Notes under the pieces: generated by a model | The model's database searches: none | What the model saw: only the letters and a program-made list of their open reading frames with translations | Told to the model about the DNA's origin: nothing | Made by a program: the position numbers and the translations under genes | Origin: Candidatus Woesearchaeota archaeon | GTDB taxonomy: Archaea; Nanobdellota; Nanobdellia; Pacearchaeales; GW2011-AR1 | Direction of reading: 5' to 3' | Assembly: GCA_964529375.1 (NCBI GenBank) | Contig: CAZGUQ010000005.1 | Coordinates: 1 to 33,785, forward strand | Length of the DNA stretch: 33,785 nucleotides | Part shown: positions 5,726 through 15,931 of the stretch, piece after piece | Position numbering within the stretch: position 1 is the first letter of the stretch | How the letters are laid out: each line of letters opens with the position of its first letter

Positions 5726-5895
5726 TTGATTACGTTAACTTAAAATGTGATAAATACTGTTAAATTAAGGATTAACCAACGACATTTTACATATTATAAT
5801 CAGCTAAAAAAGGCAATTATTGAAACTTTAACCATACGTCTTTTATAGACGATAAAACTAGAAAATTTGCTATCCCATTACCTATTGGCTTAACA
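5726..5895 (+). repeat. 170-bp interspersed element, copy A
   Basis: The reverse complement aligns without gaps to 15762-15931 (141/170 identical by hand count). Runs of 35 nt and 20 nt are identical. Imperfect terminal inverted repeats cGTTAActtAA / TTggcTTAACa. Confidence 0.75.
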
Positions 5896-5903
5896 TAACT
5901 TGA

Positions 5904-9371: not shown

Positions 9372-9543
9372 AGAGGCATATTTTTTAATTTATCTTAACC
9401 TAAAAAAACAGAGGTATGTTTTTAATTTTAACTTATATCAACCCGAAATAAGATAGTATTACCCTATAGCGACAAAGAATAGTATTAATTCTATAATAGT
9501 AACATATAGAAATATTTATATACCCTTTTTTCCCAGACAGAGG

Positions 9544-11202
9544 ATGAGAAAAACAGGCTTGGCGAAAGGAATTGGTTATGCTCTTGCAATTGGTTCTTTG
9601 GCAAATACAGCCTATGCACAAGATAGCGGAAGACAAGCAAGAAGCAACGAACTTTATTGCATGTTAAACCAAGAAGGAAAATATGTTCTTAGCTCTGATA
9701 GCACAGGGCCAATAGTCAGAAAAGATTCAACGGGAAAAATAATAAAAGAAGATTTTTGCGCAACAGTTCCATTAAGATATCTTCCAAGAAACATAAGAAC
9801 ACCAGTCGCTGGAAGAGATTCTGTAAGAAAAACCGCAATGCCTATTGAAAGAAGCATATCAACACAAAGAACAGAATCAAGAGACACATTAAGAGCAAGA
9901 ATTGTACCAAGAGTTGAAGCACTCTCCCAAGATACTTCAAGGAGAGCAATTCAGGGAATAGAAACAAGGAACATAGAATCAACAGACATAAAATATCTTC
10001 CAAAGTTAATGGAGGGGATTATTTATGAAATTTACAGAGATCCCAAGACAGATTCCTTAAAAATTGAGTTTATCCCTAAAGAAATGAGAGTTGGTTTGCC
10101 GAGGGGAGAATATAGGCAAACAAACCAGGGAGATAGTATTCTTATTGATTTGGGAGTTATAGATGAGGTTGATAACAGGCAGTTCAGATTTAACACTAAA
10201 GAATTAGAAGAAAAGATTAGAGATTACTTAGAAAGAAAAAATATAAGAATAAATTCTGTTCGCGATCTCCCAAAGCTTGCAGAGGGAGAAGTTTATGAGA
10301 TATACAAGGATGAAAATGATTCTATAATCACTTCAATTGTACCCAGAGAAATCAGGGAAAGAAGAAAAGAACTTGGATTGCTTTATTCAGAGTTCTACAG
10401 AGAAACTAGTCAAAAAGACAGCATCATTGTCCATCCAAATGTTCTGAGTGAAGTTAATAATGACAGTCTTGAAATCAGATTAGGAAACATAGAGAGAATA
10501 ACAACCCCTTACAGAATAAATTCAAGAGGAGAAAGGGTTGAAGAAGAAGAAGAAAGACAACCGCAAACACAAACACAGCCAGCACAAAGACAGGTAAGAA
10601 GAATAGAAACAGGAAGAAAACAAACAATAAACAAAGCAACTCTTGGTTTGGAAGCTGGAATTGGTTCTAGAGAAGAAATTGCTTTAGGTTTATTTTCAGA
10701 AATTCCATTGAACAAATTCCTCAATGCAGAAATCTTTGGAAATTATCATGTTTCCCGTGGAAAACCCATTTACTCTGACACAACTACAGAAACAACAATG
10801 AGAGAAACGCAGTTGATAGGCGGAACAGGAGCAACTGCAACTTACAAAGATAGAACAGATGAAATTTCAACAAGTTTAATGGAAGAAATACTTGCAGAAG
10901 CGGGCGTTGGATTAACATTCAGAATTGACAATTTTGAACTGCCGTTGAGAGCTGGAGCTGGTTTTGTAAATGAAACAGAAACTCAAAATGGAAAATCAAA
11001 AATAACATTCACAAGAAATCTTCAGGAATTAGCGAGTGATTCAATATCAAACACAAGAGTTCTTGGGCCAGAATTAAAGGCAAGATACTTTGCAAGTGCT
11101 GGTTTAAGATATAATGTAAATAAAAATTTGTCTGTCGGCGTTTCCGGAAACAGGATTGGAAACAGGAACAGCATAAGGGCAGGCATAAGGGGGAAATTTT
11201 AA
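9544..11202 (+). CDS. secreted protein with two ~90-aa internal repeats and a C-terminal OMP-like beta-barrel region
   Basis: 552 aa. Signal peptide ending AYA-QD. Repeats DIKYLPKLMEGIIYEIYRD... and VRDLPKLAEGEVYEIYKD.... An E/Q-rich linker follows. The last ~190 aa form amphipathic strands (AGVGLTFRI, LRAGAGFVNE, YFASAGLRYNV, LSVGVSGNRIG) ending SIRAGIRGKF. Confidence 0.7.
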   Translation: MRKTGLAKGIGYALAIGSLANTAYAQDSGRQARSNELYCMLNQEGKYVLSSDSTGPIVRKDSTGKIIKEDFCATVPLRYLPRNIRTPVAGRDSVRKTAMPIERSISTQRTESRDTLRARIVPRVEALSQDTSRRAIQGIETRNIESTDIKYLPKLMEGIIYEIYRDPKTDSLKIEFIPKEMRVGLPRGEYRQTNQGDSILIDLGVIDEVDNRQFRFNTKELEEKIRDYLERKNIRINSVRDLPKLAEGEVYEIYKDENDSIITSIVPREIRERRKELGLLYSEFYRETSQKDSIIVHPNVLSEVNNDSLEIRLGNIERITTPYRINSRGERVEEEEERQPQTQTQPAQRQVRRIETGRKQTINKATLGLEAGIGSREEIALGLFSEIPLNKFLNAEIFGNYHVSRGKPIYSDTTTETTMRETQLIGGTGATATYKDRTDEISTSLMEEILAEAGVGLTFRIDNFELPLRAGAGFVNETETQNGKSKITFTRNLQELASDSISNTRVLGPELKARYFASAGLRYNVNKNLSVGVSGNRIGNRNSIRAGIRGKF

Positions 11203-11203
11203 G

Positions 11204-11533
11204 ATGAAAAATTTAAGGAATTATTTAACTGCAGGGATGGTTGGACTTAGTTTATATGGATGTTTGACAGAACAAGATTCAATACAAAACAGACAGGGTA
11301 ATACACAAAAACAGCAAACAGAAGAATATTCTTTTGATAGGTTTGGGGTTACTACTAAAAGTATTCCTATAAAAATTGAAGGAGAAGCTTTAGGTATTAC
11401 ATCTGGTGATTTTGATGGAGATGGTGATATAGATATCGCTACTATCATTCGTAGATCTAGTGCTCTGGTCAATTATGATTTTTTAAAAATCTATGAAAAT
11501 AAAATTCCCCAGAAAACAGGAGAACAGAGATAA
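11204..11533 (+). CDS. small lipoprotein-like protein with FG-GAP/VCBS-like motif
   Basis: 109 aa. The N-terminus GMVGLSLYGC resembles a lipobox. GDFDGDGDIDIA is a Ca-binding FG-GAP-type motif. Starts 1 nt after the upstream stop. Confidence 0.55.
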   Translation: MKNLRNYLTAGMVGLSLYGCLTEQDSIQNRQGNTQKQQTEEYSFDRFGVTTKSIPIKIEGEALGITSGDFDGDGDIDIATIIRRSSALVNYDFLKIYENKIPQKTGEQR

Positions 11534-11534
11534 G

Positions 11535-13025
11535 ATGAAAAACACAAAACTACTTTTAATCTCTCTCGCATTAATCTTTCTAATTTCGCTTGTTTCTTTT
11601 GCAAGCGCAGCAAGCGTCATCACAAACATATTTTATGATTCAACAACAGAAAGAAATGCGACAATACCTTACGGAGAGCAGATTGGATTGATAATCAGCG
11701 CTGATTCGATTTTTGAAGATAACATGACATTAAGTGTTGATTTGCTTGATTCTAATGGAGATTTTATAAGAAACTTGCTTTCTGTTTTCACAACCAGCGA
11801 TTCTTATTCAAACTATATTATTTTGGGGCCAACTCTTTACAATTCTACTGGAGATTATAAAATTATTTCCACAATTACTGCTGCAAGCGGGCAGACAGAC
11901 ACAGATGAATTAACTCTTAGTGTAAATGCTCCAGCAACAGGAAACAATGCTCCTGTTATAATCTCAATTCCTGTAACACAAGTAAATGAAAGCCAAGTTT
12001 ATGTTTATCAAGTAACAGCAACAGATGCTGACAATGATGCTTTAACTTACACATTAACTCAAAATCCTAGCTGGCTTTCAATAAATTCTGGCACTGGTTT
12101 AATTTCTGGCACAGCTCCTAGCGTTGATTCAAATACAGATTTTGCAGTAACTGTTCAAGTATCAGACGGTGAAGACACAGCAACACAGTTTTATGTGATT
12201 ACTGTATTAAATGTTATTTCTCCGCCAATAAACAATGCTCCTGTTATAACATCAACGCCAATAACAAGTGTTAATGAAAGTACAGCATATTCTTACCAAG
12301 TTACTGCAACAGACGCTGATGGTGATTCCCTAATCTACTTTTTAACACAAGCTCCGGGTTGGCTTACAATAGATAGCAATGGCTTAGTTTCAGGAACAGC
12401 ACCTTCTGTAAATGCAAATACAGATTTCCCAATAATTATTCTAGTATCTGACGGACAAGCAAGTGCAACACAATCATATGTTTTAACTGTAATAGACATT
12501 TCCGCAGGAAATAATGCTCCTATAATTACATCAACCCCAATAACAAGTGTTGATGAAAATGCACAATATTCTTATCAGGTAACTGCAACAGATGCCGATG
12601 GAGATACATTAACTTACTCTTTCTCAGGTCCAAGCTGGCTTTCAATCAATGCAAATACTGGTTTGGTTTCGGGAACAGCACCTAGTGTTTCTTCTGACGC
12701 GCAATTCACAATTACAATAACTGTTTCAGACGGCACAGATTCTGCAACACAAACATATACATTAACTGTAAATGATGTTTCTGGAACAGGTGGGACAGGT
12801 GGAAAGAAAGGAGGCGGAGGAGTAAAGATTATTCCGGCAAATGATTTTGAAAATCAGAAATATCTTGATCAGTTTGGGCCGATAAATGCGGCTGAAGAAG
12901 AAACAAAAACTCCAGAGCAAAAAAGTTCTTTCTTGAAGGCACTTTTGATTCTTATTTGGATTGTTGTCTTTTTGCTCTTGATAGCTCTTGCTGTTTTGTT
13001 AGTTAGAAGAATAAGAAGAAAGTGA
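11535..13025 (+). CDS. surface adhesin with three tandem cadherin-like/putative-Ig domains and C-terminal TM anchor
   Basis: The ATG at 11535 gives signal peptide MKNTKLLLISLALIFLISLVSFASA. Three repeats of NNAP.I.S.P.T.V.E...Y.YQVTATDADGD.L.Y....P.WL.I....GL.SGTAP. G-rich stalk. TM plus RRIRRK at the end. Confidence 0.8.
   Translation: MKNTKLLLISLALIFLISLVSFASAASVITNIFYDSTTERNATIPYGEQIGLIISADSIFEDNMTLSVDLLDSNGDFIRNLLSVFTTSDSYSNYIILGPTLYNSTGDYKIISTITAASGQTDTDELTLSVNAPATGNNAPVIISIPVTQVNESQVYVYQVTATDADNDALTYTLTQNPSWLSINSGTGLISGTAPSVDSNTDFAVTVQVSDGEDTATQFYVITVLNVISPPINNAPVITSTPITSVNESTAYSYQVTATDADGDSLIYFLTQAPGWLTIDSNGLVSGTAPSVNANTDFPIIILVSDGQASATQSYVLTVIDISAGNNAPIITSTPITSVDENAQYSYQVTATDADGDTLTYSFSGPSWLSINANTGLVSGTAPSVSSDAQFTITITVSDGTDSATQTYTLTVNDVSGTGGTGGKKGGGGVKIIPANDFENQKYLDQFGPINAAEEETKTPEQKSSFLKALLILIWIVVFLLLIALAVLLVRRIRRK
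11943..12785 (+). repeat. intragenic tandem repeat (3 units of about 280-290 nt)
   Basis: Units start at 11943, 12231 and 12510, each with aacaatgctcct (NNAP), and encode the three cadherin-like domains. Confidence 0.75.
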
Positions 13026-15726: not shown

Positions 15727-15761
15727 CTTTTATTTTGATATTTGGTCTTTCTTAATGGTTC

Positions 15762-15931
15762 TGTTAAGCCAACGAGTGATGGAATAGCAAATTTTCTAGT
15801 TTTATCGTCTATAAAAGAAATATAATTAAAGTTTCAATAATTGCCCTTTTTGGTTAATTAAAATATGTAAAATATCTTCGGTTAATCACAAATTTAAAAA
15901 GGTTTATCATCTTTTAAGTTAACGCAATCTT
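15762..15931 (-). repeat. 170-bp interspersed element, copy B (inverted relative to copy A)
   Basis: See copy A. Contains the identical runs atagcaaattttctagttttatcgtctataaaaga (15784-15818) and ttaaagtttcaataattgcc. Confidence 0.75.

Follow-up and report, generated by a model that had tools for sequence, protein, structure and literature searches.

The stretch of DNA analysed here (hereafter the window) comprises 33,785 nucleotides of contig CAZGUQ010000005.1 from the genome of a Candidatus Woesearchaeota archaeon (GCA_964529375.1). At positions 9544..11202 (+) it contains an open reading frame (ORF) of 552 amino acids (aa) coding for a protein, P0001, whose C-terminal domain (aa 365-552; 10636..11199) is, according to the structural models, very probably an eight-stranded β-barrel of the outer membrane protein (OMP) type ending with Phe552. 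The assignment is based on AlphaFold2 (AF2), VIA-align and sequence profiles. The barrel gene belongs to a conserved module with a second gene encoding a membrane-anchored stalk of immunoglobulin (Ig)-like repeats. As the most likely reading, with a probability of roughly 0.35, we propose that the two products form a surface spike whose barrel head inserts into a further lipid layer, for which the outer membrane of a partner bacterium is the likeliest candidate. All genes and protein features for which window coordinates are given below lie on the plus strand.

Relatives of P0001 were collected by an exhaustive phmmer search with this protein as query and 1.84 billion representatives as targets. 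The search yielded 57 clusters, and nearly all matches fell within aa ~330-552 of the query. The family proteins have lengths of 360-565 aa, the matches extend almost to their C-terminus, and the barrel domain is C-terminal in all of them. Using an alignment of the last 200 aa of 55 family members (A1), AF2 returned an all-β model of the C-terminal domain with a mean predicted local distance difference test score (pLDDT) of 95.7 and a predicted template modeling score (pTM) of 0.81. In this model, eight antiparallel strands in meander order form a closed barrel. The amphipathic strands that the original prediction had noticed in the last ~190 aa were thus recovered as the eight strands of an all-β fold, and the structure prediction it had suggested as a check indeed gave a barrel. 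VIA-align superposed it best on the designed transmembrane barrel 6x9z (Z 16.4), OprF (16.1), PagL (15.9) and OmpA (15.8) with root mean square deviations of 1.8-2.6 Å (OmpA: 2.6 Å over 125 residues). TtoA, NspA, OmpW, Opa60, OmpX and Ail followed with Z values between 10 and 15 (OmpX/Ail 10.8-11.3). Soluble designed eight-stranded barrels reached a Z of ~14.5, but their ranking score was much lower than that of the membrane barrels. Since such soluble barrels can be aligned too, a membrane barrel cannot be deduced from the fold by itself. Foldseek, when used on its own, found OMP matches in the PDB with poor TM-scores (0.2-0.4), a weakness that was overcome by VIA-align. The ESM Atlas model of P0001 gave TM-scores of 0.68-0.84 with clusters of OmpA, Opa and OMP_b-brl proteins, and the matching AlphaFold DB clusters were OMP barrels without exception.

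At the sequence level, comparison of the A1 profile with the PDB disclosed OmpX (E 0.006) and Ail (E 0.008; last hairpins), and also OmpA and the EspP barrel (E~1). PF13505 (OMP_b-brl) was the sole Pfam family that A1 members matched at E<=1e-5; 36 of the 55 members matched it at E<=1 and nine at E<=1e-5, the best value being 3.4e-10. P0001 itself (aa 353-552) obtained 14.3 bits (E 0.046) at a curated cut-off of 28.7, and a Pfam scan of P0001 alone gave no significant match. Because P0001 remained under the PF13505 cut-off, its link to the OMP families depends on evidence from the relatives, the profile and the fold. Judged from the sequences, membership in PF13505 holds for the family as a whole and not for P0001 by itself. 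Fold, topology and profile place the domain among the small eight-stranded OMP barrels (PF13505, MBB clan). The original prediction of a bacterial-type barrel, and the search of OMP families it proposed, were borne out by the relatives and the fold, while the sequence of P0001 did not reach the family threshold. Two family members are annotated at NCBI as 'hypothetical protein'.

The strands, whose limits were read from the secondary structure of the model and from the column statistics of A1, are amphipathic and of membrane length (aa 367-374, 379-389, 393-404, 449-461, 464-475, 515-525, 529-538 and 541-552). On the side of the termini they are connected by turns of 2-4 residues (aa 390-392, 462-463 and 526-528). 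On the opposite side, loops L1 and L4 are short, whereas L2 and L3 comprise 44 and 39 aa, respectively. L2 (aa 405-448; 10756..10887) is a β-hairpin with the motif R-E-x-Q-L-I-G-P-G-T-Y-K-x-R-T-D-x-I-T-T, and so is L3 (aa 476-514; 10969..11085) with G-x-S-T-I-x-F-E-R-N ... P-x-V-I-T-N. Both hairpins prolong strands 3-6 into a protruding four-stranded sheet, and they harbor the most strongly conserved motifs of the entire family.

The two faces of the strands differ clearly in composition. The hydrophobic face (43 positions) has a mean Kyte-Doolittle (KD) hydropathy of +2.4, 0.6% charged residues and 7% glycine, and its aromatic residues are gathered as girdles at both strand ends; the polar face (40 positions) has a mean KD of -1.3, 28% charged residues and 23% glycine. 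Conservation is stronger on the latter (entropy 1.99 against 2.32 on the hydrophobic face, permutation p 0.009), which carries conserved Glu residues at 370, 396, 452 and 465, Arg residues at 469, 522, 545 and 549, and near-invariant glycines. Were the barrel soluble, the hydrophobic core would be the face that is conserved. The pattern suggests a lipid-exposed exterior and a polar, OmpA-like interior.

P0001 terminates with ...R-A-G-I-R-G-K-F, F552 being the last residue. Among the 55 members the terminal residue is aromatic in 93% and Phe in 91%, and the consensus end ...R-I-N-L-R-Y-R-F shows alternating hydrophobic residues at positions -2, -4 and -6. As P0001 has Gly at -2, its own β-signal motif is partial. 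The C-terminal β-signal that had been described for P0001 is thus present as far as the terminal Phe is concerned, but incomplete upstream of it.

At the other end of the protein, the signal peptide with an A-x-A site noticed by the original prediction was found again (aa 1-25; 9544..9618). Its predicted cleavage site follows T-A-Y-A, leaving Gln26 at position +1, before Asp; this Gln is conserved in at least 90% of the 55-member alignment of the barrel family. Nearly every family member combines an A-x-A|Q signal peptide with an end of the type ...R-x-N-x-R-x-x-F. The Gln at +1 after A-x-A resembles the 'Q-rule' of signal-peptidase-I substrates in Bacteroidota. A screen of the source genome revealed no second ORF with a signal peptide of the A-Y-A-Q type; the signal peptide of one other ORF ends V-S-A-A-Q. 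Between signal peptide and barrel lies a hypervariable N-terminal region (aa 26-364; 9619..10635), for which the full-length AF2 prediction was of low confidence (pLDDT mostly <50) and gave no usable model. It contains two tandem repeats of ~90 aa (aa 149-238 and 239-330; 9988..10533), which share 38% identity over 96 columns in a self-BLASTP comparison (E 4e-16), and it ends with a polar, E/Q-rich linker at aa ~333-351. BLASTP gave no match (E<=0.01) between this region and the N-terminal regions of other family members, and phmmer matches upstream of the barrel were confined to a few members, reaching aa 183 at the furthest.

Downstream of the barrel gene, an ORF encodes a surface protein with He_PIG/cadherin-like Ig repeats (Pfam He_PIG, E 1.9e-43), here called the stalk. 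Its start is probably the ATG at 11535, as judged from homologues, which gives a protein of 496 aa (11535..13025); a longer ORF begins at 11493, and the contact segments mentioned below are numbered in the corresponding frame of 510 aa. The stalk consists of a signal peptide, an N-terminal, membrane-distal domain (11616..11816), three He_PIG domains, a Gly-rich linker and a C-terminal transmembrane helix (12930..13004). The helix, recognised from the sequence and the stalk alignment, is followed by R-R-I-R-R-K in agreement with the positive-inside rule. In the window, a short ORF of 109 aa (11204..11533) is inserted between the barrel and stalk genes, and its stop codon is one base away from the putative start of the stalk gene. 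It shows a lipobox-like L-Y-G-C and an FG-GAP-like D-x-D-x-D-G motif with a weak match to FG-GAP_3 below the cut-off (E 7e-4). Homologues of this ORF were found neither in the related loci nor elsewhere in the source genome; by sequence comparison it is not part of the conserved module.

The coupling of the two genes is a general feature of the family. In every related locus examined, a He_PIG Ig-repeat gene lies a few bases downstream of the barrel gene. This applies to members of the genus, to other genera, to the weakest family match (P0058) and to an outlier in another GTDB family, and the partners across these loci possess a signal peptide together with a C-terminal transmembrane helix or an amphipathic tail. 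For comparison, 80 related loci were recovered with the thermosome as query; the stalk protein as query retrieved nothing. The closest of these loci belong to metagenome-assembled genomes (MAGs) of Pacearchaeota, Nanoarchaeota and Woesearchaeota, chiefly from groundwater and sediments. The recurrent gene order is DPH2 (diphthamide synthase) - trxB - EamA, followed by the barrel and the He_PIG gene in the same direction and a convergent thermosome gene, and independent MAGs share it, some of them on long contigs (351 kb and >270 kb). Because this synteny is conserved on long archaeal contigs, we argue for vertical inheritance and exclude contamination or chimerism. In one locus from another GTDB family of the same class (G747, L107:1498-2759, minus strand) the barrel homologue seems to be split: an ORF with signal peptide (2253-2759) and the barrel ORF (1498-2313) overlap in different frames, and a He_PIG-like protein follows. 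A frameshift or sequencing error is possible there.

To our mind, the new element of this system is the obligate barrel-stalk module along with a predicted contact between the barrel loops and the stalk; the partner gene and the unusual conservation of the long loops had escaped the original prediction. The complex was predicted with the mature barrel protein (aa 27-552) and the stalk ectodomain (aa 42-470) using custom alignments. The pair reached an ipSAE of 0.64, whereas the best of three controls gave 0.00. In a calibration, this mark was reached by 58 out of 80 solved complexes and by two out of 110 mismatched pairs, a yardstick which is rough here owing to the custom alignments. The predicted contacts on the barrel comprise residues 420-439 and 481-505, i.e. 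L2 and L3, and those on the stalk residues 42-52, 67-75 and 104-108, i.e. the first strands of the membrane-distal N-domain. The interface positions of the barrel are the most conserved ones of the domain (entropy 1.47 vs. 2.35 elsewhere, p<1e-4). On the basis of this model, barrel and stalk probably bind to each other.

The distribution of the module is patchy. The A1 barrel was detected in 10 of the 42 genomes of the genus, in 14 of 401 genomes drawn from the order, all belonging to one GTDB family, and in four of 401 genomes drawn from the phylum, always with one copy per genome. A He_PIG gene adjoins the thermosome gene in 11 of the 80 loci. Two types of stalk could be distinguished by their N-domains. 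Type 1 exhibits the motifs S-V-x-T-x-L-F-Y-D, S-A-D-S-I-F-E and T-S-D-S-Y-S and occurs in all nine barrel-bearing genomes of the genus in which the downstream gene is assembled, while among the 32 genus genomes without a barrel match only weak similarities (E about 1e-4) were seen in two genomes. These two genomes and six thermosome loci harbor type-2 stalks. The three contact segments are conserved in type 1 and divergent in type 2. Both types of pairs occupy the same chromosomal locus, but upstream of the type-2 stalk there is a different protein with an A-Y-A-Q-type signal peptide and a Gly-rich amphipathic C-terminus, ending with ...R-L-N-P-N-K instead of Phe. These upstream proteins are located on the minus strand at L028:7177-8346, L049:11088-12365, L066:11939-12694, L077:11853-13136, L086:11454-12620, L102:9968-10963 and L111:2721-3890. 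Homology to the barrel family is not claimed, as hhalign gave a probability of 6% against A1 and a match in the PDB was lacking. One out of six matched PF13505 (E 2e-4), and their language-model features in the Atlas are closest to OMP barrel clusters. They may constitute a sister barrel family.

As the original prediction had remarked, archaea of this type are not known to have a Bam machinery. Neither PF01103 (Omp85/BamA) nor PF07244 (POTRA) was matched in the source genome, which is 82% complete, and PF01103 had no match in the 42 genomes of the genus, while diderm controls gave matches (7 of 14 control genomes). Searches of the source genome for further OMP-like barrels (PF13505, PF06178/KdgM and two heuristic screens) found none. 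A word-index search with aa 350-552 retrieved P0001 itself only, and the family alignment found nothing among proteins of 110-350 aa. As no bacterial relatives appeared in these searches beyond similarity at the Pfam level, a donor phylogeny could not be built, and a bacterial origin of the barrel cannot be shown. A recent horizontal acquisition, one of the explanations initially offered, was not supported by the exhaustive search, which found only ~57 clusters of the same architecture and no closer bacterial relative, nor by the genomic contexts of the barrel gene, which in all examined cases were Pacearchaeota chromosomes.

Two further genes of the source genome deserve mention with regard to bacteria. 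At G000:C16:2307-8453 (minus strand; locus L110), a membrane-anchored protein of 2048 aa is encoded that contains an SLT lytic murein transglycosylase domain (aa 1905-1979, 35.6 bits at a cut-off of 21.3). Giant SLT-type proteins have led to the proposal that bacteria are hosts or prey of small-genome Pacearchaeota and Woesearchaeota (Castelle et al. 2021, PMC8204110; Vigneron et al. 2022, PMC9723730). At G000:C3:33236-34111 (plus strand; locus L109), a Peptidase_M23 gene (43 bits) lies directly downstream of an FtsZ-like gene on a contig that is archaeal, with aIF5A and ribosomal protein L11. Peptidase M23 was discarded as evidence for bacterial hosts, since a control archaeon has this family too and the gene adjoins ftsZ here. 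A full-text literature search found no paper on OMP-type barrels in Pacearchaeota or Woesearchaeota; one paper reports a possible distant PopA relative in Altiarchaeales.

How might such a pair of proteins work? In the arrangement we favor, the product of the barrel gene, which is predicted with good support to be exported, would form the head of a two-protein spike on the cell surface. The stalk is a type-I membrane protein whose N-domain would stand ~15-20 nm off the archaeal membrane and is predicted to grip the L2/L3 sheet of the barrel. If the N-domain holds L2 and L3, the loop side of the barrel points toward the archaeon, the hydrophobic belt lies beyond the stalk, and the termini together with the N-terminal region are directed outward. 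Because the belt needs a hydrophobic environment, a second lipid layer or another hydrophobic setting has to be postulated. We suggest that this layer would be the outer membrane of a bacterial partner, in which the barrel would adopt the native orientation of an OMP and act as a receptor or anchor that is supplied by the archaeon and then held by the stalk. In favor of a bacterial partner, the search for Omp85 in 42 genomes of the genus was negative while 93% of the members keep an aromatic residue at the end, and the SLT protein of the same genome fits the published proposals (PMC8204110, PMC9723730). Of the three explanations offered by the original prediction (acquisition from a bacterium, a protein destined for an outer or host membrane, convergent architecture), the second one remains the leading one, the identification of the layer with that of a partner being tentative. 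A more specific version, in which Pacearchaeota plant a self-made receptor, appears quite unlikely to us: the barrel would enter the periplasm of a Gram-negative cell, the β-barrel assembly machinery (BAM) of the partner would insert it, and the Ig stalk would then clamp L2/L3. In that version, the C-terminal Phe would be kept in a BAM-less archaeon because the partner's BAM recognises the barrel for insertion.

Several points weigh against a barrel in the membrane of a partner. We know of no route by which an archaeal protein gets into the periplasm of another cell, and the 340-aa N-terminal region must reach the far side of the second membrane, a step for which the proposal has no explanation. 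The structural statements on these archaea are all predictions. That the hydrophobic face points outward was deduced from its composition and conservation and from the resemblance to OMPs, not from geometry. Since the predictor makes use of conservation, the coincidence of the interface with the conserved loops is supportive but not fully independent, and the counts of co-occurrence overstate independence as the genomes are kin with shared ancestry.

The need for a hydrophobic setting could also be satisfied without a second organism. If the archaeon possessed an unrecognised outer lipid layer, the barrel might be a resident, OMP-like anchor in it, tethered via the He_PIG stalk. Sec export past the membrane would suffice for this, the belt with its aromatic girdles demands lipid, and a membrane-anchored stalk with a barrel is a plausible inter-membrane tether, which can be likened to OmpA, OmpM and Lpp tethering the outer membranes of bacteria. 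We consider this unlikely, as Omp85 and POTRA were not found in the source genome nor Omp85 in 42 genomes of the genus, and as the searches of the (82% complete) source genome found no other OMP-like barrel. Moreover, given the predicted interface, the loops would face a periplasm-like space and the 340-aa N-terminal region would cross the layer, so that the topology of bacterial OMPs would be reversed. Another arrangement dispenses with lipid layers altogether: there may be a two-component coat resembling an S-layer, in which the barrel would be the outer subunit and its belt would be buried in lattice contacts or hold scavenged lipids. It has the simplest topology because all parts remain extracellular, gene order and stalk architecture parallel slaA-slaB, and the switching of types and fast evolution at the locus are typical for surface-layer genes. 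In addition, a bacterial superfamily of eight-stranded barrels has been described that oligomerises and traps lipid (PMC12228718). On the other hand, a belt of 43 positions in which charged residues make up 0.6%, together with two aromatic girdles, is a signature of lipid exposure, and the domain is similar in sequence to membrane barrels, the soluble designed barrels lagging behind in Z and far behind in ranking score. A coat should also be universal, yet the module is found in a minority (type 1 in 10 of 42 genus genomes, while 11 of the 80 loci have a He_PIG gene beside the thermosome). We regard a coat subunit as a possible but doubtful alternative.

The domain order of P0001, with its signal peptide, variable N-terminal region and C-terminal barrel with a final Phe, is also that of a type Va autotransporter, which exports an N-terminal passenger through its own barrel, and weak matches to the Autotransporter β-domain were obtained for eight of the 55 members (best E 2.3e-4) besides the EspP barrel (E~1). 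The model, however, has eight strands rather than 12 and no linker helix in the lumen, the interior is probably packed with conserved Glu, Arg and Gly residues and would leave no channel, and BamA or TamA was not found; this makes export by P0001 of its own passenger very improbable. A filled interior without a channel was also the reason to reject a pore-forming toxin. Finally, the gene could stem from bacterial contamination or a chimeric assembly, or it could be a transferred gene that is decaying and has no function, considering that the contamination of the bin is estimated at 5.4% and the domain type is otherwise bacterial. We regard this as next to impossible: the gene lies between EamA and the thermosome on an archaeal contig of 33.8 kb whose GC content is even, the same gene order recurs in independent MAGs, the sequencing runs of at least two groundwater samples contain the locus (93-98% of the sampled words), and ~57 diverged clusters retain the reading frame, the signal peptide and the terminal Phe.

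Parts of the system can be compared with known proteins. OmpX and Ail likewise have eight antiparallel strands with short turns where the termini lie, a loop sheet above the barrel, which binds proteins in their case, and a C-terminal aromatic residue. The loops of bacterial OMPs are usually their most variable part, whereas the archaeal L2 and L3 are far longer (~40 aa each) and the most conserved part of the family. Unlike OmpX/Ail, the archaeal protein also has a 340-aa N-terminal extension and an obligate partner gene, and it occurs in an archaeon in which BamA was not found. The N-terminal transmembrane domains of OmpA and OprF are the best structural matches. The archaeal barrel probably shares their polar interior, in which glycines and residues of either charge are conserved, but it is C-terminal instead of N-terminal and lacks the peptidoglycan-binding OmpA_C domain. 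Type Va autotransporters share the domain order and weak Pfam matches with P0001 and differ by 12 strands, their lumen and the linker helix.

With respect to function, two host-interaction systems may serve as analogies, for which no homology is claimed. In each of them, an Ig-type protein of one cell's membrane grips a barrel or receptor that lies in the membrane of another cell. In the Opa-CEACAM interaction, a membrane-anchored rod of Ig domains attaches with its tip to the loops of a small barrel, and in the intimin-Tir system the attacker brings its own receptor. The archaeal pair differs from both in that it is encoded in one operon and that its delivery to a partner membrane is hypothetical. 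SlaA/SlaB of the Sulfolobales provide a third analogy: the upstream gene encodes the outer subunit, the downstream gene a β-sandwich stalk with a C-terminal transmembrane helix, and the outer subunit binds to the tip of the stalk. The likeness is restricted to the gene order and the C-terminal membrane anchor of the stalk. No relation of sequence or fold was found, the archaeal outer subunit being an OMP-type barrel with a lipid-type belt, and a scan of the window proteins matched none of the Pfam S-layer families.

The genome from which the window originates, that of a member of the Pacearchaeota (DPANN), comprises 586,649 bp on 47 contigs, with an estimated completeness of 82% and contamination of 5.4%. 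The assembly of the barrel gene derives from a groundwater metagenome. The runs containing the locus are DNA sequencing runs only. Over the entire window the GC content is even (about 0.32-0.39), and genes for the thermosome, aIF5B, diphthamide synthase and SerRS surround the barrel gene, EamA and the thermosome being the immediate neighbors of the barrel-stalk pair. This agrees with the initial view of the window as archaeal. About 26 nt upstream of the ATG of the barrel gene, a TATA-like box (TTTATATA, 9515..9522, plus strand) was read from the sequence. It is a putative archaeal promoter, which would give rise to a leaderless transcript or one with a short leader. The window also contains a 172-nt inverted repeat with 84% complementarity (5728-5899 and 15758-15929) around a segment of 9.9 kb that includes the barrel-stalk operon and the thermosome gene. 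Since the inner gene order is kept in other genomes, this segment is unlikely to be a mobile island.

In teaching, OMP-type transmembrane β-barrels count as characteristic of diderm bacteria and of the organelles descended from them. The family described here is a conserved and apparently vertically inherited group of such barrels in archaea in which BamA was not found, each member being tied to an anchored stalk. Two options follow from this: Pacearchaeota may have an envelope layer that has escaped attention, or the barrel is placed in the membrane of another cell. Either option bears on the hosts of uncultured Pacearchaeota and Woesearchaeota and on the way these cells attach. A planted receptor, if true, would extend the Tir-intimin principle across domains and would give a first molecular handle on the symbiosis of DPANN archaea with bacteria. 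The barrel and stalk domains are two small targets that lend themselves to in vitro assays of binding and membrane insertion, and the barrel could, whatever its location, inform about the folding of β-barrels independent of BAM.

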